From NCBI RefSeq assembly GCF_963921235.1, contig NC_086097.1:49106001-49170000 (forward strand): 64,000 nt of DNA, written 5' to 3'. The DNA is from Mobula hypostoma. Lineage: Eukaryota. The notes under the pieces are model-generated. The model saw only the letters and a program-made list of their open reading frames with translations, did not search any database and was not told the origin of the DNA. This document shows positions 10,190-53,470 of this stretch, piece after piece. Both the position numbers and the translations under genes were made by a program. The stretch's first letter is position 1, and each line of letters starts with the position of its first letter.

Positions 10190-11165
10190 GCAGAAACCCG
10201 CAAACCATTGACCTGTAGACCTGATATCTGTAGTTGTGAAAACATTGGAATCTATTATAAAGGATGTTATCACAGGACACTTAGAAAATAATTAATATAA
10301 TTGAGCTGAGTCAGCATTGATTTACAAAAAAAAATCATGTTTGACCAATTTATTGAAAATAGTTGAGGACATCTCCAGCAGTTGAAATGAGAAAGAACCA
10401 ATAGATGTGGTGTATATGGATTTTGATCAGGTTTTTGATAAGATCCCATAGAGGAGGTTGGTGAACAAGGTTAGAGCACACTGAAGTGGGAGTAAGTTAC
10501 TAGCAAAGACTGCTTATAGATCAAATACAAAAGTAGGATTTTAAAAATTTTTCTTGGGTTGACAGGCTGTGACCTATGGGATAGGTGTGATGTTTAACAA
10601 TCTATGTTGACTATTTGGTTGAATTTGGCCAAATATGCTGAATATGCAAAGTTTCCAAATTTGCTGAAGGCACAATAGTGATGGGAATGTAAAGAAATAC
10701 TTCATGAGGTTATAGACAAGCTGAATGGGCAGCAAGAGACAGATACTGTGGAGAAAAAAATATGAGTTTATCTATTTCTTTACTGAAAAACAAAAATGTT
10801 GAGTATTTCTAAAATGGTAACTGGGAAATACCGATACTGAGAGACACCTGGGTGTCTTTATATGCAGGTCACTGAAAGCTACCATGTAGATGAAACTAAC
10901 AATTAAGAAGATAAATGATATATTCTCCTTAAGTGCAAGCAGATTTGAATACAAGGAATAAAATGAATTATTAGAATTATTTAAGTTCTTTGTAAGACTA
11001 CTTTTGGAATATTGTGTACACTTTTGGTCTCCTTATCTAAAAAGGTGCTTGTTCTAAGGCAATACAATGAAGATTTACCAGATTGATTCCTGAAATGGCA
11101 GGGTATCATAAGGAAAGATCAAGACATTAGGCTTCTGTTCTCTACAAGTTAGAAGAATGAGAATA
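10190..11165 (+). mobile_element. Old degraded CR1 RT fragment
   Basis: 'gatgtggtgtatatggatttt', 'ttgataagatcccatagagg', 'ttggaatattgtgtacacttttggtctcc' = CR1 DVVYMDF / FDK.PH / LEYCV.FWSP motifs. Confidence 0.75.
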
Positions 11166-11777
11166 TCTGTATAAAGATATAGGAAATGCCACTTAAATAG
11201 GATCACCAAAGCTGAGCTCCAAATCATAATCAAGAACTTAACTGGTACAAACAGATTGACACAATGGCAACTAGAGGATGGGAGAATAAGATTAATGTAT
11301 GACAAGAGGCTCCCTCATTTCTTCCCCCGTATTCTTGTCAGGAATAATATGGTATATTAAAGACACATACACATGGAAATTAGCCTAGAACAGAGGAGTC
11401 CAGTTGAGTGGTGTACCTGACAAGTAACATTCTATTTCCACCACCTCTACCATTAGCACATGGTGGATGTCTGGGTACTAGCTACGAGACATATCATCAA
11501 TGCCATGTCATAAGTCATTCTGAACTAAACGTAGGCACCTTCTTTCATTATACGAATCAGAATCCTGTAATTGCCCATTTCAAAACATTACATAATGGTG
11601 TTTCTTGACTAGCAGGGATTGCTAGTACCTGCTGGCTTGATAGCATCACCAACAAACCAGAAAAAAAGAAAATATCTGTTATTACCAAATACAAATAAAG
11701 TAGGAGAGTTTTCAGATATATTTTGATCACATGATTATTCATTTGTGGTAGATAGATGAACACAACTTCAGATATAA

Positions 11778-11954
11778 TTATTCAGCTTGAACCACTGCTG
11801 TTGAGTCCATCTGAAGTTCTTTCTTTTTCCTGATGATTTTTGCAACATCATTCTTCAGTTTCGCAACACTGCCTTCCAATTCTTCTCCAAGTGTTTGAAT
11901 CAATTCACTCCGTTCATTCACAAAATACCTCAAGCAGTGAATATGCTCTTCATC
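11778..11954 (-). CDS. KIF28: KIF28-like kinesin, terminal coding exon
   Basis: Acceptor ttttattttag|GAT, phase 0; DEEHIHCLRYFVNERSELIQTLGEELEGSVAKLKNDVAKIIRKKKELQMDSTAVVQAE* (TAA at 11780-11778). Confidence 0.85.
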   Translation of the reverse strand, partial: DEEHIHCLRYFVNERSELIQTLGEELEGSVAKLKNDVAKIIRKKKELQMDSTAVVQAE

Positions 11955-12325
11955 CTAAAATAAAATGCACAAGGAATACTGATTAATTGGCAATATTAAA
12001 GGTTTCTTATCCATTACATAGTGGGATTTAAAAGCGTTACTCAAAGGAGCTAACAAAGTCCCCTTTAATTTAACAAATTATTAAATTGCAGAAAGCAATC
12101 AATATCAACATGAAAATGCATACTGGGACATATAATGGAAGAATAACACCTTTACAATCGGAAAGTGCAACATAAAGACTGAAGTCATGATTAATATAAT
12201 TTTTAGTGTTCCGGGTGTATTTTCTCTCATCATTGCATTCAACTGTACTGTGGAGAAGATCCCTCAGATACACCCAGACTGTCACCACTAAAGTACAGTA
12301 AACTGTCAAGATTTACTTTGCGTAA

Positions 12326-12518
12326 ACACATGAAATTCTGTAGATGAAGGAAATCTTGAGCAACACACATAAAATGCTGGAAAACTCAGTAAACCAAGCA
12401 GCATCTATGGAGGGAAATGAATAATTGATGTTTCGGGCTAAGACCCTTCACCAGGACTTGTCCCGAAACATAGATGATTTATTCCACTCCACAGATGCTG
12501 CCTGACTTGCTGAGCTCC
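12326..12518. mobile_element. Palindromic Penelope-derived mini-element with hammerhead-like core
   Basis: Inverted arms; minus-strand CTGGTGA-AGGGTCTTAGCCC-GAAAC at 12430-12454; 14-bp flanking repeat TTTACTTTGYGTAA (12312-12325, 12519-12532). Confidence 0.75.
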
Positions 12519-12618
12519 TTTACTTTGTGTAACTGCTTACTTCAACTTACAATGCAAAAATAACTTATTTTCTCAGTGTCCCTGCTCAGGATGCTCGCAA
12601 TTGGCAAGAGAATACATT

Positions 12619-12785
12619 CTCTGGTGATTTTTGCAACATCATTCTTCAGTTTCCCAATACTGCCTTCCAATTCTTCTCCAAGTTTTGGAATCATAGAACT
12701 CCTTTCACTCACAAAATACTGAGTTCCTCCAGCATTTTGTGTGTGTTGCTTGATTTCCAGCATCTGCAGATTTTATCTTGTTTGT
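12619..12785 (+). mobile_element. Penelope-like 3' terminus fused to a 99-nt copy of the kinesin terminal exon
   Basis: 12621-12719 aligns without gaps to 11830-11928 (11 mismatches by eye); followed by 'gagttcctccagcattttgtgtgtg...ccagcatctgcaga'; direct repeat AAGAGAATACATT at 12606-12618 and 12786-12798. Confidence 0.85.
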
Positions 12786-13194
12786 AAGAGAATACATTGA
12801 GTCTCTTTCCTGCTTCACAACGTAATGTTGTAAGGATAGCAGGTATTTTTGTCTATCATTCATGCTGCTCTATTATTAGAGGAGACTTCCTATCTTATTT
12901 GCTCATCTCTGCAGCGCGCAAAATTATTGCCAGATAATAAATCAAAATCTTTCTTATGGCGGTCTTCGAACCTGGGAACATAAAAGCTAATTTAAGATTA
13001 TCATTATAGCCAAAGGTGTGTTCAGAAAGACCAGAGAATGGACAGAGAACATTTTGATTGTCATGACTCAATGTCTGCTCACGGGTTTACATAAAGAGAG
13101 CTATTCCCTGCATTTTAAAGCCTATATGTGGAACATAAACTGGCAAAACCACACCAGACACATAAAAATCTTCAATAATGAGCATAAGGCCTTC

Positions 13195-14002: not shown

Positions 14003-14215
14003 CACACAACACACACAAAATGCTGGAGGAATTCAGCAGGCCGGGCAACATCTACGGAAAAAGTGCAGGAGACGTTTCAGTCCTGCCAAAGGGTCTTGGC
14101 CCGAAACATCAACTGTATTTTTTTCCATAGATGCTGCCTGGCCTGCTGAGTTCCTCCAGCATTTTGTGTGTGTTGCTCAGATTTCCAGCATCTGCAGATT
14201 TTCTCTTGTTTATGA
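14003..14215. mobile_element. Palindromic Penelope-derived mini-element with hammerhead-like core
   Basis: Arms acacacacaaaatgctggaggaattcagcagg / cctgctgagttcctccagcattttgtgtgtgt; CTGCCAA-AGGGTCTTGGCCC-GAAAC at 14083-14107. Confidence 0.75.
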
Positions 14216-20189: not shown

Positions 20190-23100
20190 ATAGAACATAG
20201 AACGTGGAACAGTACAGCACAGGAACAGTCCATTCGGCCCATGTTGTGCCGAACCAGCAAAAAGCAAATCAAAAACATCCAAACACTAATCCCTCCTACC
20301 TACACCATGTCCATATCCCTCCATCTTCCTTTCAGCCACGTGCCTGTCCAAACGTCCTTTAAAAGCCTCTCATGTATTTGCCTCTACCACCATAACAGGC
20401 AGCACATTCCAGGCATTCACGACTCTTCGAGTAAAAAACTTACCCCTCACATCCCCCTTGAACCTACCCCTTCCCACTTTCAATACTTGCTTTCTGATAT
20501 CAGACATTCCAATCCTGAGAAGCAGATACTTTCTGTGCACTCTATCTATGCCTCTCATAATCTTATAAAACTCTGTCACATCTCCCCTCAGCCTCCGACG
20601 CTTCAGAGAAACCAATCCAAGTTTAACCAGCCTCTCATAATAGCATGTGCCCTCTAAACAGACAGCATCCTGGTAAACTTCTTCTGCATTCTCTCCAAAG
20701 TCTCAACATCATTCCTATAGCAAAGCAACCAGAACTGTACACAATACTCCAGATGTGGCCTCATGTGGCCATGAGAGAGGTCTGGAGGGAGATGAGGACC
20801 ATCACTGGGTTCCGGCAAACTAGCAACAGAGGAGCTGAAGGCAGTGTGGACAGGGCCAATCAACTTAACCTGTTCTTTAACAGATTTGACATTGTGGTCC
20901 CTGCCCATCCCCCACATGAGCCATCTGTTGTCGGCCCCCAACCAACACATATTCCACTCTCTCCTCCTACCCTTCCTCATAGTACCCCACTCTGCTCTCA
21001 TGACTATACCCCTTCCCCACACGAAACCACCACGGTGGGTTTCACAGCTGAACAGGTGAGAAGACAGCTGAAATGTCTCAACCCAAGCAAGGCTGCAGGA
21101 CTGGATGGTGTCAGTACTGGGGTGCTCAAAGCCTGTGCCCCTCAGCTATGTGGAGTACTTCGCCATGTATTCAACCTGAGCCTGAGGCTCCAGAGGGTTC
21201 CTGTACTGTGGAAAACGTCCTGCCTCGTCCCTGTGCCGAAGACGCCATGCCCCAGCGGCCTCAATGACTACAGACCGGTGGCATTGACCTCCCACATCAT
21301 GAAGACCCTGAAGAGACTTGTTCTGGAGCTGCTCCAGCCTATGGTCAGGCCACACTTAGATCCTCTCCAGTTCGCCTACCAGCCCCGACTAGGAGTTGAG
21401 GATGCCATCGTCTACCTGCTGAACTGTGTCTACGCCCACCTGGACAAGCTAGCGAGCACAGTGAGGGTCATGTTTTTTGACTTCTCCAGTGCGTTCAACA
21501 CCATCCGCCCTGCTCTGCTGGGGCAGAAGCTGACAGCGCTGCAGGTGGATGCTTCCCTGGTATCATGGATTCTTGATTACCTAACTGGCAGACCACAGTA
21601 CGTGTGCTTACAACACTATGTGTCCGACAGAGTGATCAGCAACACTGGGGCTCCACGGGGGACTGTCTTCTCTCCCTTTCTCTTCACCATTTACACCTCA
21701 GCCTTCAACTACTGCACAGAGTCTTGTCATCTTCAGAAGTTTTCTGATGACTCTGCCATAGTTGGATGCATCAGCAAGGGAGATGAGGCTGAGTACAGGG
21801 CTACGGTAGGAAACTTTGTCACATGGTGTGAGCAGAATTATCTGCAGCTTAATGTGAAAAAGACTAAGGAGCTGGTGGTAAACCTGAGGAGAGTTAAGGT
21901 ACCGGTGACCCCTGTTTCCATCCAGGGGGTCAGTGTGGACATGGTGGAGGATTACAAATACCTGGGGATACGAATTGACAATAAACTGGACTGGTCAAAG
22001 AACACTGAGGCTGTCTACAAGAAGGGTCAGAGCCGTCTCTATTTCCTGAGGAGACTGAGGTCCTTTAACATCTGCCGGACGATGCTGAAGATGTTCTATG
22101 AGTCTGTGGTGGCCGGTGTGATCATGTTTGCTGTTGTGTGCTGGGGCAGCAGGCTGAGGGTAGCAGACACCAACAGAATCAACAAACTCATTCGTAAGGC
22201 CAGTGATGTTGTGGGGATGGAACTGGACTCTCTGACGGTGGTGTCTGAAAAGAGGATGCTGTCTAAGTTGCATGCCATCTTGGTCAATGATCCCATCCAC
22301 TACATAATGTACTGGGTGGGCACAGGAGTACATTCAGCCAGAGACTCATTCCACCACGATGCAGCACAGAGCATCATAGGAAGTCATTCCTGCCTGTGGC
22401 CATCAAACTTCACAACCCCTCCCTTGGAGGGTCAGACACCCTGAGCCAATAGGCTGGTCCTGGACTTATTTCCTGGCATAATTTACATAATACTATTTAA
22501 CTATTTATGGTTCTATTACTATTTATTATTTATGGTGCAACTGTATCGAAAACCAATTTCCCCCTGGAATCAATAAAGTATGACTATGACTATGACTATA
22601 ATCAGAGCTTTAAAAAGTTGCAGCATAATACCCTGATTTTTGAATTCAATGCTTCAACTAATAAAAGCAAGCATTTCATAAGCCTTCTTAACCACCCTGT
22701 CGACCTGTGTAGCCACTTTCAAGGAGCTAAGAACTTAGATCCCAAGATCTCCCCACTCAGCGACACCGTTAAGGGTCTTGTCCCTAACAGTTTACTACCT
22801 CCTTGCATGTGCCCTACCAAGGTGCAACACCTCTCCTTTATCTGTGTTAAATTCCGTCTGTCATTTCTCGGCTCTTATCTGCAAATGATCTATATCATCT
22901 TGTATTCTTTGACAGTCTTCTATACTATTCAAACCTCCACCAATCTTGGTGTTATCCACAAAGTTGCTAACCCACCCATTTACACTTTCATCCAATCATT
23001 TATATACATCACAAACAGCAGAGGTCCCGGCACAGATCCCTGTGGAACTCCACTAATTACAGACTTCCAACTCGAATAAGTCCCTTCAACCACTACCCTC

Positions 23101-23373: not shown

Positions 23374-23549
23374 ATGTTGAGCAATACACACAAAAAACTG
23401 CAGGAACTCAGCAGGTCAGGCAACATCCATGGACAGGAATAAATAACTCATGTTTTGGACCGAGACCCATCATCAGAACCTGAGTTCCTCCAGCATTTTG
23501 TGTGTGTTCTGGATTTCCAGCATCTGCAGAATCTCCTGTGATTATGATA
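23374..23549. mobile_element. Palindromic Penelope-derived mini-element with hammerhead-like core
   Basis: Minus-strand CTGATGA-TGGGTCTCGGTCC-AAAAC at 23452-23476; 10-bp flanking repeat ATGCATTATA (23364-23373, 23550-23559). Confidence 0.75.
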
Positions 23550-24814
23550 ATGCATTATACTGTATGGTTCCTATTAAAGCAGTTTACTGCACAACTTTCT
23601 GAAAGTATCCCTAGTCACACTCCCAATGGCAGTCTGATACCATGACTGCAAAGCAGGAATACTTTGCTGCAAAGAACAGAAAGGGACTCCCTAGACATAC
23701 TGAAAGAGACATTAATTCTCATATGTGAGACAAATGCCAAGACTGAAGTCCTGTTATGCCAAAGGTGGAGGGTGGAGGATGGGGAGGGTGTTGGAGAGGA
23801 GGGAAGGTGATCCTCACTGGAGACTTACTCGGGAAGAGCCTGGCAGGAGGTAGCTCCAGCTGTCTCTTCCAGAATCAAGGATCCTCAATCATTTAAGGTT
23901 CAAAGGCTCATTATTCGAAACATAAACCATAACCATAAACAGTAAACCTTAAACTATTACATATGTTCTCACAAGAAATGGTGGTAGTAAGAGAGCCATC
24001 TGAGTAGCACATTCATTCACGTGTTAATAACATATTCATCCATGTGTAGTGTTGCAAGTGGATCTGATATGGGAGATTATTATGCATCACCTGTTCTTTC
24101 ATAGACAATTAATGCAATTCCACATTGATGTTAGAGATTGGAGTGTGTGGAGATGGATTTGTCCAGACTGGGTACAATAATTGGGCAGACTCTTTATGAA
24201 AAGTCTCCCTCCATCTGTGAGATTCTTATTGCCCAAGGTGAAAGCTCCCCTTTTCTGAACTGCTAGTTTTCTGCTGAGACATTCTCCTCTTCCTGTCACT
24301 CCTAATGTTATTTAGCCTGCAATCCAGATCTTACTAGTGGTCTGACTGCTGTTTTCTCTCTTCCTCCAGCTACTCTTTTCCCCCAGATTGTTGGGCTGTG
24401 GTAAATACAGCTAAGTCCTTTTTATGTTTGATGTCTGCTAACAGATCCAATTTCAAGTCAGGGTGGTCTTAGAAATGGCCTGGTAAGATGGTTTAAGTGC
24501 ATAGGGTCAGATGTAGTAAGCTTGTAAACAGTTTGGTGCAACTGCAGACATTTGCCAGGGAAAAGGATGGAGTCACTGGCTAGCAACCAATTTTCTGAGA
24601 ACTCAAAACATTAACAGTATAATGTTGTGCATCACTTACTGAATGCTAACCACTTGCAAACACTGTGTGTCACTGTAAAATTCTGTTTTGCAATGATATT
24701 TTATTTCTGTTGAAAGTTAAGCAGGGTCAAAGCCCTTCTTCCGTTACTTGAGTTCTTCACTGGTGTCTTATTCAATGTCAATGTAAAGATATATAAAGAT
24801 AACTCTCCTCTTAC

Positions 24815-24969
24815 TAGTGGCCTGAGTTGCTTCAAGCAGATCAGTCGTCCTCTCACTCCAATCATGCTGAAGTAAAAGGTCTTGAGTGCTTTTGCGAACT
24901 CAGCATCCACACTGGGAAATGGTGACCTTTGACAGGATTGATCACCAGTGAACTTCACTGAAACTCCAT
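24815..24969 (-). CDS. KIF28: KIF28-like kinesin exon
   Basis: tttgcag|AT...CTA|GTAAGA; 155 nt, phase 1 to 0; (D)GVSVKFTGDQSCQRSPFPSVDAEFAKALKTFYFSMIGVRGRLICLKQLRPL. Confidence 0.82.
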
Positions 24970-25056
24970 CTGCAAACAAACAAAAGGAAAGTTGAGAGTT
25001 AAAGCAACGAAGGTGATATTATCAGGAAAAAAGCAGCTCATATTTATCAGCACTAC

Positions 25057-28013: not shown

Positions 28014-29923
28014 TAGAAACATAGAATATAGGTGCAGGAGTAGGCCATTCAGCCCTTCGAGCCTGCACCGCCATTCAGTATGATCATGGCTGATCATCCA
28101 ACTCAGAACCCTGTACCTGCCTTCTCTCCATACCCCCTGATCCCTTTAGCCACAAGGGCCTTATCTAACTCCCTCTTAAATATAGCCAATGAACTGGCCT
28201 CAACTGTTTCCTGTGGCAGAGAATACCTCAGATTCACCACTCTCTGTGTGAAGAAGTTTTTCCTCATCTCAGTCCTAAAAGGCTTCCCCTTTATACTTAA
28301 ACTGTGAGCCCTCGTTCTGGACTTCCCCAACATCAGGAACAATCTTCCTGCATCTAGCCTGTCCAATCCCTTTAAAATTTTATACATTTCAATAAGATCG
28401 TCCCTCAATCTTCTAAATTCCAGCGAGTATAAGCCTAGTCGATCCAGTCTTTCATCATATGAAAGTCCTGCCATCCCAGAAATCAATCTGGTGAACCTTC
28501 TTTGTACTCCTTCTATGGTAAGAATGTCTTTCCTCAGATTAGGGGACCAACACTGCACACAATACTCCAGGTGTGGTCTCACCAAGGCCTTATACAACTG
28601 CAGCAGAACCTCCTTGCACCTGTACTCGAATCCTCTTGCTATGAATGACAGCATACCATTCGCCTTTTTCACCGCCTGCTGTACCTGCATGCCCATTTTC
28701 AATGACTGGTGTATAATGACACCTAGGTATCGTTGCACCTCCCCTCTTCCTAATCGGCCACCATTCAGATAATAATCTGTTTTCCTGTTCTTGCCACCAA
28801 AGTGGATAACCTCACATTTATCCACATTAAATTGCATCTGCCATGAATTTGCCCACTCACCTAACCTATCCAAGTCACCCTGCATCCTCTTAGCATCCTC
28901 CTCACAGCTAACACTGCCACCCAGCTTCGTGTCATCCGCAAACTTGGAGATGCTGCATTTAATTCCCTCATCTAAGTCATAAATATATACTGTAAACAAC
29001 TGGGGTCCCAGCACTGAGCCTTGCGGTACCCCACTAGTCACTGCCTGCCATCCTGAAAAGGTCTCGTTTATTCCCACTCTCTGCTTCCTGTCTGCCAACC
29101 AATTCTCTATCCACATCAATACCATACCCCCAATACCGTGTGCTTTAAGTTTGCACACTAATCTCCTGTGTGGGACCTTGTCAAACGCCTTTTGAAAATC
29201 CAAATATACCACATCCACTGGTTCTCCCCCATCCACTCTACTAGTCACATCCTCAAAAAATTCTATGAGATTTGTCAGACATGATTTTCCTTTCACAAAT
29301 CCATGCTGACTTTGTCCGATGATTTCACCGCTTTCCAAATGTGCTGTTATCACATCTTTGATAACTGACTGTAGCATTTTCCCCACCACCGATGTCAGGC
29401 TTACTGGTCTATAATTCCCTGGTTTCTCTCTCACTCCTTCTTTAAAAAGCGGGGTTACATTAGCCACCCTACAATCCTCAGGAACTAATCCAGAATCTAA
29501 AGAGTTTTGAAAAATTATCACTAATGCATCCACTATTCCTTGGGCTACTTCCTTAAGCATGCTGGGATGCAGACCATCTGGCCCTGGGGATTTATCTGCC
29601 TTTAATCCCTTCAATTTACCTAACACCACTTCCCTACTAACATGTATTTCCCTCAGTTCCTCCATCTCACTGGACCCTCGGTCCCCTACTATTTCCGGAA
29701 GATTATTTATGTCCTCCTTAGTGAAGACAGAACCAATGTAGTTATTCAATTGGTCTGCCATGTCCTTGTTCCCCATGATCAATTCACCTGTTTCTGTCTG
29801 TAGGGGACCTACATTTGTCTTAACCAATCTTTTTCTTTTCACATATCTATAAAAGCTTTTACAGTCAGTTTTTATGTTCCCTGCCAGCTTTCTCTCATAA
29901 TCTTTTTTCCCTTTCCTAATTAA
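28014..29923 (-). mobile_element. Young 5'-truncated CR1 LINE with uninterrupted 579-aa RT/C-terminal ORF
   Basis: ORF 28103..29842 ('KSPGPDG', 'NYRPVSLTS', 'YLDFQKAFDKVPH', 'GVPQGSVLGP', 'KFADDTKL'); flanking repeat TTATCA at 28008-28013 and 29924-29929. Confidence 0.95.
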
Positions 29924-36499: not shown

Positions 36500-38620
36500 A
36501 CATATTTATAAGATCCTGGTCATACCTCACATGGAGTACTGTGCTCAGTTCTGGTCACCTCACTACAGGAAGGATGTGGAAACCATAGAAAGGGTGCAGA
36601 GAAGATTTACAAGGATGTTGCCTGGATTGGGGAGCATGCCTTATGAGAATAGGTTGAGTGAACACGGCCTTTTCTTCTTGGAGCGACGGAGGATGAGAGG
36701 TGACCTCATAGAGGTGTACAAGATGATGAGAGGCATTGATCGTGTGGATAGTCAGAGGTTTTTTCCCAGGGCTGAAATGGCTAGCACGAGAGGGCACAGT
36801 TTTAAGGCGCTTGGAAGTAGGTACAGAGGAGATGTCAGGGGTAAGTTTTTTACGCAGAGAGTGGTGAGTGTGTGGAATGGGCTGCCGGCGACGGTGGTGG
36901 AAGCGGATACGATAGGGTCTTTCAAGAGACTCCTGGATAGGTACATATAGCTGAGAAATATAGAGGATTATTGGTAACCCTAGGTGATTTCAGGTCATGC
37001 TTTATTGATCTCGGGGGAAATTGGTTTTCGTTACAGTTGCACCATAAATAATTAAATAGTAATAAAACCATAAATAGTTAAATAGTATTATGTAAATTAT
37101 GCCAGGAAATAAGTCCAGGACCAGCCTATTGGCTCAGGGTGTCTGACCCTCCAAGGGAGGAGTTGTAAAGTTTGATGGCCACAGGCAGGAATGACTTCCT
37201 ATGATGCTCTGTGCTGCATCGCGGTGGAATGAGTCTCTGGCTGAATGTACTCCTGTGCCCAACCAGTACATTATGTAGTGGATGGGATCATTGACCAAGA
37301 TGGCATGCAACTTAGACAGCATCCTCTTTTCAGACACCACCGTCAGAGAGTCCAGTTCCATCCCCACAACATCACTGCCTTACGAATGAGTTTGTTGATT
37401 CTGTTGGTGTCTGCTACCCTCAGCCTGCTGCCCCAGCACACAACAGCAAACATGATCACACTGGCCACCACAGACTCATAGAACATCTTCAGCATCATCC
37501 GGCAGATGTTAAAGGACCTCAGTCTCCTCAGGAAATAGAGACGGCTCTGACCCTTCTTGTAGACAGCCTCAGTGTTCTTTGACCAGTCCAGTTTATTGTC
37601 AATTCGTATCCCCAGGTATTTGTAATCCTCCACCATGTCCACACTGACCCCCTGGATGGAAACAGCTCTCCTCAGGTCTACCACCAGCTCCTTAGTCTTT
37701 TTCACATTAAGCTTCAGATAATTCTGCTCACACCATGTGACAAAGTTTCCTACCGTAGCCCTGTACTCAGCCTCATCTCCCTTGCTGATGCATCCAACTA
37801 TGGCAGAGTCATCAGAAAACTTCTGAAGATGACAAGACTCTGTGCAGTAGTTGAAGTCCGAGGTGTAAATGGTGAAGAGAAAGGGAGACAAGACAGTCCC
37901 CTGTGGAGCCCCAGTGCTGCTGATCACTCTGTCGGACACAGTGTTGCAAGCACACGTACTGTGGTCTGCCAGTCAGGTAATCAAGAATCCATGACACAAG
38001 GACAGCATCCACCTGCATCATTGTCAGCTTCTCCCCCAGCAGAGCAGGGCGGATGGTGTTGAACGCACTGGAGAAGTCAAAAAACATGACCCTCACAGTG
38101 CTCGCTGGCTTGTCCAGGTAGGCGTAGACACAGTTCTGCAGGTAGACAATGGCATTCTCAACTCCTAGTCGGGGCTGGTAGGCGAACTGGAGGGGATCTA
38201 AGTGTGGCCTGACCATAGGCCGGAGCAGCTCCAGAACAAGTCTGTCCAGGGTCTTCATGATGTGGGAAGTCAATGCCACCAGTCTGTAGTCATTGAGACC
38301 GCTGGGGCGCGGCGTCTTCGGCACAGGGACGAGGCAGGACATCTTCCACAGCACAGGAACCCTCCGGAGCCTCAGGCTCAGCTTGAAGACATGACGAAGT
38401 ACTCCACATAGCTGAGGGGCACAGGCTTTGAGCTCCCTGGTACTGACACCATCCGGTCCTGCAGCCTTGCTTGGGTTGAGACGTTTCAGCTGTCTTCTCA
38501 CCTGTTCAGCTGTGAAGCCCACCGTGGTGGTTTCGTGAGGGTTTCTAAAGTAAGTACATGTTCAGCACAGCATTGTGGGCCAAAGGACCTGTATTGTGCT
38601 GTAGGTTTTCTATGTTTCCA
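36500..38620 (+). mobile_element. CR1 3' end split by a Rex1 insertion (36500-36991 and 38541-38620)
   Basis: ORF 36477..36950 'PHMEYCAQFWSPHYRKD'; 3' UTR 'ggtaaccctaggtgatttc' resumes as 'tttctaaagtaagtacatgttc'. Confidence 0.85.
36995..38538 (-). mobile_element. Rex1/Babar copy 2 (same family as 20771-22599)
   Basis: ORFs 37812..38522, 37343..37939, 37134..37367 nearly identical to copy 1, with small deletions and frameshifts. Confidence 0.92.
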
Positions 38621-50817: not shown

Positions 50818-53470
50818 GAATTGAATTGACTTTATTTTTTACATCCACGTACACGAGGAGTAAAAATTTTTACGTTACATCTCCGTCTAAATGTGCAATG
50901 TGCAATTTATATTAATTTATAATAAATTGTATGTATAGCAGGGCAGCCAATATAACATAGAAATACAATTGTATCAGCGTGACTTAATCAGTCTGATGGC
51001 CTGGTGGAAGAAGCTGTCCCAGAGCCTGTTGGTCCTGGCTTTTATGCTGTGGTACAGTGTCCCGGATGACAGCAGCTGGAACAGTTTGTGGTTGGGGTGA
51101 CTTGGGTCTCCAATGATCCTTCGGGCCTTTTTTAAGCACCTGTCTCTGTAAATGTCCTGAATACTGGGAAGTTCATATCTACAGATGTGCTGGGCTGTCC
51201 GCACCACTCTCTGCAGAGTCCTGCGATTGAGGGAAGTACAGCTCCCAGGCAGTGATACAGACAGTCAGGATGCTCTCAATTATGCCCCTGTAGAAAGTCC
51301 TTGGGATTTTTTTTTAGATTATGAGAGCACTTAGTCCTCTTTTACTGTCATTTAGAAATGCGTACATGCATTAAGAAATGATACAATGTTCCTCCAGAGT
51401 GATATCACAGAAAAACAGGACAAACCAAAGACTGACACTGACAGAACCACATAATTATAACATATAGTTACAGCAGTGCAAAACAAAACCATAACTTGAT
51501 AAAGAACAGACCATGGGCACGGTAAAAAAAAAGTCTCAAGTCCCGATTGACTCCTGAGTCCCCGATAGCAGGCGGCAAAAGGGAGAAACTCCCTGCCATA
51601 AACCTCCAGGCACCAACAACTTGCCAATGCATTAGAAGCACCCGACCACACCCAACATTGAGTCCGTCCATCCGAAAACTTCGAGCCTCCAACCAGCCCC
51701 TCCGATACAGCCTCCCAAGCACCATCCTCTGCCGAGCGCCTTCAACCTCGCCCCGGCCACTGAAACAAGCAAATCCGAGGATTCGGGGCCTTCTGCTCCG
51801 GAGATTCCGGTTACCACACAGTAGCAACGGCAGCGAAGCGGGCATTTCAGAAGTTTCTCTGGATGTTCCTCCATACTCTCACATCTGTCTCCATCAAATC
51901 AGGATTGTGCACGGTACCCTACTTGACAGATTACAGATATCATTCACTGGAGAGGCCACGTGTGCTGCATCGCGCCGCCATCTTCTCCTCCTCCTCTTTG
52001 GGGGACTCATGTCAAACTTCTTCAACCGTCTGAGGTGAAAGAAGAACCTTTGTGCTTTTTTCACCACACAGCCGGTATGCACAGACCACGTGAGATCCTT
52101 GATGATGTGTATGCCAAGGAACTTAAAGTTGTTCACCCTCTCAACCCCAGATCCATTGATGTCAATAGGGGTTTGCCTGTCTTCATTCCTCTTGTAGTCC
52201 ACAACAAGCTCTTTTGTTTTTTAGACATTGAAGGAGAGGTTGTTTTCTTGACACAACTGTGTCAGGGTGACGACTTCTTCTCTGTAGGCTGCCTTGTTAT
52301 TATTTGAGATAAGGCCAATCAATGTAGTGGCGTCAGCAAATTTAATTAGCAGATTGGAGCTGTGGGTGGCGACACAGTCATGGGTATACAGAGAGTAAAG
52401 AAGGGGGCTTAGGACACAGCCCTGAGGGGAACCTGTGTTGAGGGTCAGAGGGGCAGAGGTGAGGGAGCCCTCTCTTACCACCTGCTGCCGATCTGACAGG
52501 AAGTCCAGGATCCAGCTGCACAATACAGGGTGAAGACCAAGGTCTCTGATCTTCTTGTCGAGCCTGGAGGGAATTATGTGGTTGAGTGCTGAACTGTAAT
52601 CCAAGAACAGCATTCTCACATAAGCATCCTTCTTCTCGAGATGTGTAAGGACGGTGTGTAGAGCTGTGGCTATTGGATCATCTGGTGATCGGTTGTGTCG
52701 GTAAGCGAATTGTAGGGGGTCCAGTTTGGGTGGTAGCAAGCTGCAGATGTAGTCCTCGACCAGCCTCTCGAAGCATTTGCTTATTATTGAGGTGAATGCA
52801 ACAGGACGCCAGTTGTTCAGACATTTTACCTTGTTCTTTTTAGGGACGGGAACAATGGTGGATGTTTTGAAGCAGGAGGGCACTCTACATTGGGAGAGGG
52901 AGAGATTGAAAATGTCTGTAAACACACCTGCCAGTTGTGCCACGTATATCCTGAGTACCCACCCTGGGATGCCGTCCAGTTCCGCATCTTTGCAACTGTC
53001 CTTCTGTTGGAAACACCTGTGTACTTCAGCCTCAGAGATGACGAAGGTGCAGGTCGCTTTGGCAGCTCTCCTCGGGGGCTCAGTGTTGGCGACATTGAAC
53101 CGAGCGTAAAAAAAATTGAGCTCATCTGGGAGAGAGGCAGCAATGTTGGCAGCACCATTGTGCTTCGCTTTGATGTCTGCCATGCTGTGCAGACCTTGCC
53201 ATAAGCTGCATATGCTGTTTGGTGGAGAGTTGTGTCCGGATCTTGTCCCCATATTGTCGTTTCACTGCCTTGATGACTTTGCGTAGATCATAGCTGCCTT
53301 TCTTAAGTTCCTGTTGGTTACTGACTATGTAAGCAATGTCTCGTGTGATAAGTTCCGCTCGCACGGAACTGTTGATCCAGGGTTTCTGGTCTGGATAGAC
53401 CCTGACCGATTTCTGGACGACAACATCCTCGATACACTTCCAGATGAAGCTCGTTACCTCATCCGTGAAC
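50818..53470 (-). mobile_element. Rex1/Babar-clade retrotransposon (second family), interrupted at 51310-51997
   Basis: ORFs 52221..53252 ('FKTSTIVPVPKK', 'LDPLQFAYRHNRS', 'KFADAT'), 51894..52202 and 50974..51207 ('DPSHPNH'); 3' tail at about 50818-50835. Confidence 0.9.
51310..51997 (-). mobile_element. Unclassified ~690-bp non-coding retroposon inserted in Rex1
   Basis: Minus-strand 5' end 'agaggaggaggagaagatggcggcgcg'; CpG-rich body; A-rich 3' end at about 51307-51315; host Rex1 is collinear on both sides. Confidence 0.65.

Follow-up and report, generated by a model that had tools for sequence, protein, structure and literature searches.

The last intron of KIF28P in the ray Mobula hypostoma contains a 167-bp insertion, bounded by a perfect 13-bp target site duplication (TSD), in which the 3' end of a Penelope-like element is joined to a copy of part of the gene's own last exon. 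We consider it probable (roughly 75%) that the insertion arose in a single integration event during which the exon segment was captured by a template switch, whichever template was copied. The initial annotation had proposed one insertion with a template switch to sequence about 0.8 kb away, and this is still the best reading in view of the TSD, the terminus of the tail and the co-occurrence of both parts in relatives. The copy is predicted to be a neutral, old and decaying relic and not a working exon. All positions refer to the window, that is, the whole stretch of 64,000 nucleotides analysed here (contig NC_086097.1, positions 49,106,001 to 49,170,000, forward strand). Its features are summarized in Table 1.

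Table 1. Features of the insertion and of the KIF28P exons around it (window coordinates)
Feature	Position	Strand	Remarks
Last KIF28P exon	11781..11954	-	58 codons, DEEHIH...VQAE, stop; 100% identity to KIF28P [Mobula hypostoma] P0002
Copied source segment inside the exon	11830..11928	+	Direct repeat, 89% identity; CACAAAAT at 11919-11926
Older degenerate hairpin copy, same element type	12333..12579	+	Inverted arms and local alignment
Left TSD copy, 13 bp	12606..12618	+	AAGAGAATACATT
Two bases CT	12619..12620	+	Match neither target nor exon in register
99-nt exon copy, antisense to KIF28P	12621..12719	+	12710-12717 is CACAAAAT, common to the element's inverted arm
Penelope-like element, last 66 nt, sense	12720..12785	+	To the canonical family 3' terminus
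Right TSD copy	12786..12798	+	AAGAGAATACATT
Candidate cassette exon, 168 nt	12551..12718	-	Open frame; use unsupported
Penultimate KIF28P coding exon	24816..24969	-	Donor GT at 24815-24814 opens the 12.9-kb last intron

KIF28P is encoded on the minus strand, and tblastn with three protein models (P0002, P0003 and P0004) places its exons from about 61.5 kb down to 11.78 kb of the window. The insertion is held by the last intron, which runs from 24815 to 11955. Identity of the orthologues to M. hypostoma KIF28P is 95% in Mobula birostris, 91% in Hypanus sabinus and 83% in Pristis pectinata. The M. hypostoma protein (P0002) is only 147 residues long, and exons on the minus strand between 11781 and 61534 match residues from about 390 to 954 of the Hypanus protein and 397 to 858 of that of M. 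birostris; the gene model may be truncated, or the gene may be partly decayed. In the Pristis pectinata model (P0005), about 21 different residues (IPASKPFGGIVAAMLELELSN) replace LRPL between the last two exons. This extra stretch is unrelated to the proposed cassette exon and may be due to an alternative splice choice or to an error in the model. The introns of KIF28P also hold reverse-transcriptase (RT) frames of other retroelements, at 20627-22444 (plus strand) and at 37343-37972, 28103-29923 and 52221-53261 (minus strand), two of which have an ALKBH8_N-type C-terminal motif (Pfam). Just downstream of the RT frame at 20627-22444, a Penelope hairpin copy with a 10-nt TSD occupies 23380-23545.

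The 13-mer AAGAGAATACATT is found exactly twice in the 64-kb window, starting at 12606 and 12786 on the plus strand, and not once on the minus strand; both copies of the direct repeat that the initial annotation had described are therefore present and unique in the window. The exon copy aligns with its source over 99 nt, gap-free and in direct orientation, with 11 mismatches, 10 of them in codons whose change alters the amino acid and one synonymous (CGG/AGG, by codon reading). These counts had been given before and were all reproduced. The source lies 0.68-0.79 kb from the insertion site, in direct orientation. A search of the 3.48-Gb assembly with the copy yielded two matches, its own locus and the local exon 791 bp away (two of two candidates scored). 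A paralogue as the source of the copy was rejected, given just these two genome matches among the best candidates, which alone were scored. The tail had been described as about 65 nt of Penelope sequence joined through a 'ct' microhomology. The tail stands, at 66 nt, but the 'ct' does not, as a strict gapless alignment shares the C at 12719 alone.

The tail belongs to an abundant family. Its identity to the scored copies, the best 40 of 1337 first-look candidates, is 91-99%. The matches mostly stop at window positions 12785-12788, and the aligned copies all terminate in ...CTTGTTTGT, followed by unrelated flanks. Longer copies of the family extend further upstream, first across CT-rich 3' sequence and then into a reading frame that has GIY-YIG motifs; at one locus (L034), about 330 nt separate a GIY-YIG-like frame from the same tail downstream of it. 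Another locus (L088) has an open frame of 1064 amino acids with RVT_1 at 555-717 followed by GIY-YIG at 967-1041, although at scores below the cut-offs (RVT_1: E 6.2e-5, 23.2 bits against 29.6; GIY-YIG: E 6.3e-4, 20.4 bits against 22.6). The GIY-YIG match in a further fragment (L035:2-268) is above the Pfam cut-off at 23.3 bits. The order of an RT followed by a C-terminal GIY-YIG domain is thus seen in a single ORF, with weak domain scores, and phmmer found no RT match for the L088 frame among PDB sequences. Tail-like sequence is also present near the start of the L088 ORF, which resembles the anole Penelope element, where reverse transcription begins about 110 nt into the ORF (PMC11167929). 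The family's GIY-YIG query gave 165,891 first-look candidates in the genome. On this architecture, the family is assigned to the endonuclease-containing Penelope-like elements, and the RT/GIY-YIG frame together with the canonical 3' terminus bears out the initial annotation of the tail as Penelope-type. No hammerhead match to Rfam was obtained from the window at gathering scores or from four loci at E up to 1; CTGATGA...GAAAC-like cores were seen by eye in copies such as L012. Rfam searches of the element hairpins gave solely sub-threshold miRNA-like matches. One of these is between the hairpin arms at L026:733-827 and mir-3926 (43 bits, gathering score 82), and Penelope hairpins can mimic miRNA genes in such scans.

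We compared the KIF28P insertion with ordinary insertions of the family in 864 kb of contiguous sequence around the window and in 44 loci that were fetched with this locus's own sequence and are biased for that reason. The sample has 127 distinct 3' ends, 73 of them in the contiguous part, and 123 were examined. A TSD was defined as an exact repeat of at least 10 nt beginning no more than 6 nt from the 3' end, and the flank 120 nt further on at the same 123 ends served as control. Exact TSDs were found at 32 of the 123 ends and at none of the 123 controls. Their length is 10-14 nt in 31 of the 32, the remaining 18-nt case (with a 25-nt insert) being doubtful. Most of these insertions (20/32) have an inverted left arm starting at the 5' TSD, and in 18 of the 20 the arm starts 37-44 nt inside the 3' end. 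Plain 5'-truncated copies account for another eight and two are too short for classing. DNA that is unique in the sample is present in the last two, namely the KIF28P insertion and a composite at L005. The latter, with an insert of 1161 nt, was rejected as a second capture: it is ambiguous and is judged to be a cluster in which several fragments of elements surround 221 nt of unique DNA, with a chance 10-mer. The KIF28P locus is the only clear capture, that is, one of the 32 TSD-flanked insertions, or one of 21 in the unbiased contiguous part. The scan for TSD-enclosed copies of nearby sequence that the initial annotation had suggested, carried out here on the 864 kb and the 44 loci, therefore returned this clear case and no second one.

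The offset of 37-44 nt corresponds to the published Penelope 'tail' of 30-40 bp, which is present on one side of the unit (PMC8557442); frequent 5' truncation and an inverted, 5'-truncated copy adjoining the unit are further traits of endonuclease-containing Penelope-like elements. Work on the anole element attributes the tail to RT initiation at two sites of an AC-rich stem-loop, with both cleaved strands being extended (PMC11167929). The KIF28P insertion resembles ordinary Penelope insertions in its TSD, its canonical 3' end and its AC-rich start region, and differs from them in that its left arm is host exon rather than element sequence. The exon copy occupies the very position where the inverted left arm sits in most insertions of the family. 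Genome-wide, 'tight hairpin' mini-insertions that have the junction CACAAAAT(G/A)CTGAGTTCC and a length of about 85-105 nt number at least 71 (e.g., L134, L154 and L155). The tail is on one of their arms, the second arm extends to the AC-rich start region beside the TSD, and TSDs of 14-15 nt were seen. The last three bases of the KIF28P TSD are ATT, as reported from in-vitro work on the anole element. An ATT cleavage preference was set aside, since the other TSDs listed show no regularity of this kind.

The junction between the copy and the element has the appearance of an arm. The 14 nt of the copy beside the element, CACTCACAAAATAC (CATTCACAAAATAC in the source exon), resemble the element's inverted arm CACACACAAAATGC, in the exact register at which that arm meets ...TGAGTTCC in tight hairpin insertions. 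The pattern CACAAAATNCTGAGTTCCTCCAGCATTTTGTG, with no more than one mismatch, has 71 matches in the genome including the KIF28P locus, and its reversed control has none; One point counts against the match: the base after the KIF28P junction is A/T as in the exon, a state found at only 5 of the 71 (N being A). Compared with the 14 nt left of the junction at 29 other loci, the copy agrees at 10-13 positions and the source exon at 9-12. The predicted fold of 12700-12760 is a hairpin with exon bases paired to element bases (-9.7 kcal/mol, z -3.8), and none of 200 shuffles equalled it. In the 1.5 kb to the left of the insertion site (11100-12605), CACAAAAT occurs once on the plus strand, at 11919, the boundary of the source segment. 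At the left junction, 2 nt (TT) at most are common with the T-run of the exon, and CT lies in between. On these observations the join between copy and element is taken to be homology-guided, through an 8-nt microhomology. The 8-nt identity was noticed post hoc, and an in-register chance of 4^-8 somewhat overstates its significance. The locus has the features of a microhomology-mediated templated insertion, including microhomology at the junction, a nearby template in cis and direct orientation.

Contigs from four other organisms (B, C, D and I), aligned at 80% likeness, provide information on the age of the insertion. In all four, a contig starts in the tail (12756-12762) and runs through the right TSD to about 13230. 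Differences in this right flank number 6 of 471 nt in organism B and 39-40 of about 480 nt in C, D and I, and the left-flank pieces of C, D and I are about 5-9% different. The junction between copy and tail is bridged by a 112-nt contig of organism C (12628-12739, four differences) and by a 303-nt contig of organism I (12442-12752), which bridges the left TSD as well. Organisms B and D have no contig over 12598-12658 and are silent on the copy there. An empty target site was seen in none of the four. Because two relatives bridge the copy/tail junction, a single old event is indicated. Within the copy, organism C has A>G and C>T changes at 12659-12660 and organism I has an 11-nt deletion at 12666; the copy appears to be drifting independently in different lineages.

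The mismatches between copy and exon have accumulated on both sides. In one codon the copy has ATG (M), the state found in M. birostris, Hypanus, Pristis and all four relatives, which read T at 11903, while the M. hypostoma exon has TTG. Given this distribution, the TTG is a recent change in the M. hypostoma exon. At a second codon the copy has GGG (G), as do Hypanus and Pristis, where both Mobula species have A. At a third it has AAA (K), the state of Pristis, where Mobula has T; here K is possibly ancestral. Polarised by codon reading against the orthologous proteins and against contigs of the relatives, seven of the 11 mismatches fall on the copy lineage, all of them amino-acid-changing, and three on the exon lineage, with the synonymous one unpolarised. 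Three of the copy-lineage changes form one cluster, GAA to TCT. The copy thus predates changes common to both Mobula proteins, and its own decay, about five events per 99 nt, is not out of line with a tail at 92-98.5% identity and an intact 13-mer. Error-prone copying as an explanation of the 11% divergence was set aside, being unneeded once the changes were polarised.

These data weigh against two unrelated events, in which an older local duplication of the exon was later joined by a Penelope tail and the 13-bp repeat is a coincidence. Such a history, which we regard as very improbable, would explain a copy that differs from the exon by 11% beside a perfect TSD and a tail whose identity to other copies reaches 98.5%. 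However, with three of the 11 mismatches on the exon lineage and three more in one cluster, the decay of the copy is compatible with that of the tail. A tail inserted beside an existing copy would duplicate the bases at its own 5' end and not those beyond the copy; the 13-mer is confined to the two boundaries, and none of the 123 controls has a repeat of at least 10 nt. Relatives were also inspected for the copy without the tail or the tail without the copy, which the initial annotation had regarded as the mark of two separate events, and both relatives with cover (C and I) have both parts. We give next to no credence to an assembly artefact, that is, a chimera of mis-joined repeat-rich reads. 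The region is repeat-dense, and short-read contigs break at 12378 and 12758, but two other organisms have independent contigs that span the left TSD, the copy and its junction with the tail. A single event, on the other hand, agrees with a 13-mer present only at the two boundaries and with a TSD length typical of the family. It is a likely reading that draws on the TSD and on co-occurrence in relatives rather than on a before/after pair of loci.

For the template of the capture, we favour DNA, at about even odds. An endonuclease-type staggered cut gave rise to the 13-bp duplication, with the 3' end of the element abutting the right repeat. Element cDNA primed on the right-hand end would then turn the corner over a few bases at the near-palindromic TGCTG...CAGCA stem, which would give a cDNA 3' end of ...ATTTTGTG. 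This end would anneal to the only complementary 8-mer on the plus strand of the left-hand end, exposed by 5'-3' resection, copy about 100 nt of the exon, dissociate and be joined to the left overhang; the polymerase could be the element RT or a host repair polymerase. Such a course would explain on which side and how far away the source lies, its direct orientation and why the 8-mer is unique. The TGCTG/CAGCA stem alone is weak (-3.7 kcal/mol, z -0.8). In none of the 20 hairpin insertions does the arm continue back across the tail. The family's usual path is therefore not snap-back, and arms of this kind fit priming from both nicks better than snap-back.

An RNA template within the same single event is possible, though less probable. 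The top-strand nick would be extended by the element RT on the nascent KIF28P transcript, and the cDNA would then return to element RNA, or meet the other cDNA, at the 8-nt match. This would use only activities reported for the anole enzyme, since that Penelope protein, once purified, cuts both strands, extends both of them and can initiate within RNA in the absence of homology (PMC11167929). It agrees with the 20 of 32 insertions that have a left arm from the 5' TSD, as priming from both nicks predicts, and with a copy that is antisense to the mRNA on the plus strand, as top-strand-primed cDNA must be. In addition, the copy begins beside the mRNA's GGAAAAAG run, opposite a primer ending in TT, and the Penelope elements of Adineta vaga mobilise host sequences in trans (PMC3846280). 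On the other side, an RNA template does not itself explain why the source is only 0.8 kb away among all cellular RNA; it needs a tethered nascent transcript nearby and germline transcription of KIF28P, both of which are assumed. Since the copy stays within a single exon and stops 26 nt before the exon's 5' edge, it offers no intron or splice junction by which a DNA template could be told from an RNA template. Orientation excludes the simplest switch, in which the first cDNA moves directly from element RNA onto KIF28P mRNA: on the strand that carries the tail in sense, the exon piece runs antisense to the gene.

We also examined whether the copy is used as an exon. The initial annotation had pointed out that, on the minus strand, the element supplies an acceptor directly before a copied TAT codon and that an open frame leads from there to a splice donor. 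All of these are present: CTCAG directly before TAT, a 168-nt open frame at 12718-12551 (56 codons, YFVSE...YFCI) and GTAAGT at 12550-12545. With phase 0/0, they speak for a working in-frame cassette exon of KIF28P. The absence of a polypyrimidine tract, noted earlier as a caveat, is confirmed by 7 pyrimidines in 20 positions of the acceptor, against 10-17 at nine real KIF28P acceptors. The 11-nt deletion at 12666 in organism I breaks the frame within the copy, and the segment is contained in none of four annotated orthologous proteins; those of both Mobula species and Hypanus join ...LRPL directly to DEEHIH. All seven copy-lineage changes alter an amino acid, and the 23 non-copied codons would be open by chance in about one case out of three. 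The proposal of an in-frame cassette exon is thus abandoned as highly unlikely on account of the purine-rich acceptor, the deletion in organism I and the absence from 4/4 proteins. Three sequencing runs guessed to be RNA have a depth of 0 on both real exons (11600-12048 and 24621-25050), leaving the gene uncovered; of 164 joints in these runs, the 15 shown are all between repeats.

The candidate GTAAGT donor sits in the decayed tail of the older element copy at 12333-12579. The arms of this copy (12385-12445 and 12454-12514) are 77% complementary, and its local alignment with another copy, at 14100-14209, stops at 12579 and has a score of 82.5 (shuffle maximum 48.5). It ends about 25 nt before the left TSD, so that two Penelope insertions of different age lie side by side.

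Insertions of LINE-1 are known for microhomology-mediated 5' junctions, templated filler DNA and chimeric retrocopies, and in L1 chimeras both parts have the same transcriptional sense. In polymerase-theta-type templated insertions at breaks, a 3' end anneals at a short homology, copies, dissociates and is joined. The KIF28P insertion is similar to such filler in its cis source, its direct orientation and the short homology near the break. It differs in the class of element, a GIY-YIG element with both strands cut, and in the length of the segment, 99 nt from about 0.7 kb being long. An L1-type chimeric retrocopy was considered and rejected, as on the plus strand the tail is sense but the exon piece antisense, and the piece is internal, 26 nt short of the exon's 5' edge.

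Capture of host sequence by Penelope elements is a known route, already reported for the rotifer Adineta vaga. In that study, TSD-bounded Penelope units hold captured host sequence, including non-coding 'unrelated sequences' between solo pLTRs (Arkhipova, Yushenova and Rodriguez 2013, PMC3846280). The KIF28P insertion shares with these units, as they appear there, host DNA within a Penelope insertion that is bounded by terminal sequence of the element and a short TSD (PMC3846280). The Adineta vaga cases described there are whole intron-containing genes or spacers between two pLTRs that were moved to new loci (PMC3846280), whereas in KIF28P a 99-nt internal fragment of an exon was acquired in cis, from 0.8 kb away, in a vertebrate host. 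Unlike the Adineta vaga units so described, it replaces the inverted arm of a minimal 66-nt tail, with an 8-nt match at the join. Among the papers listed by full-text literature searches, none describes a Penelope insertion that contains a copied neighbouring exon. What appears to be new in the KIF28P case is the local capture, in cis, from the last exon of the very gene that was interrupted, and the replacement of the inverted arm of a minimal insertion by a segment whose join mimics that arm.

It is conceivable, though improbable, that Penelope intermediates in rays copy nearby host DNA whenever it mimics the inverted arm, the KIF28P copy being one proto-exon. If true, an element class of more than 10^5 copies would repeatedly, and guided by sequence, give rise to local duplications of exons and regulatory sequences, and the KIF28P proto-exon would have been framed in phase by the element's AG and the older copy's GTAAGT. 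Against such a regular outcome stands the single clear case of foreign DNA in 32 TSD-flanked insertions.

Penelope-like elements are the least understood class of retrotransposons, and how their inverted structures are resolved is an open question. The KIF28P locus may be viewed as a natural 'mistake' that recorded the resolution step of Penelope intermediates. The presence of a foreign piece in the arm's place, together with the 8-nt arm mimic, argues that the two ends of the intermediate join by annealing at short homology. As a single old and decaying case, predicted to have no effect on KIF28P, the insertion suggests that Penelope integration can duplicate a fragment of a neighbouring exon inside the exon's own gene.
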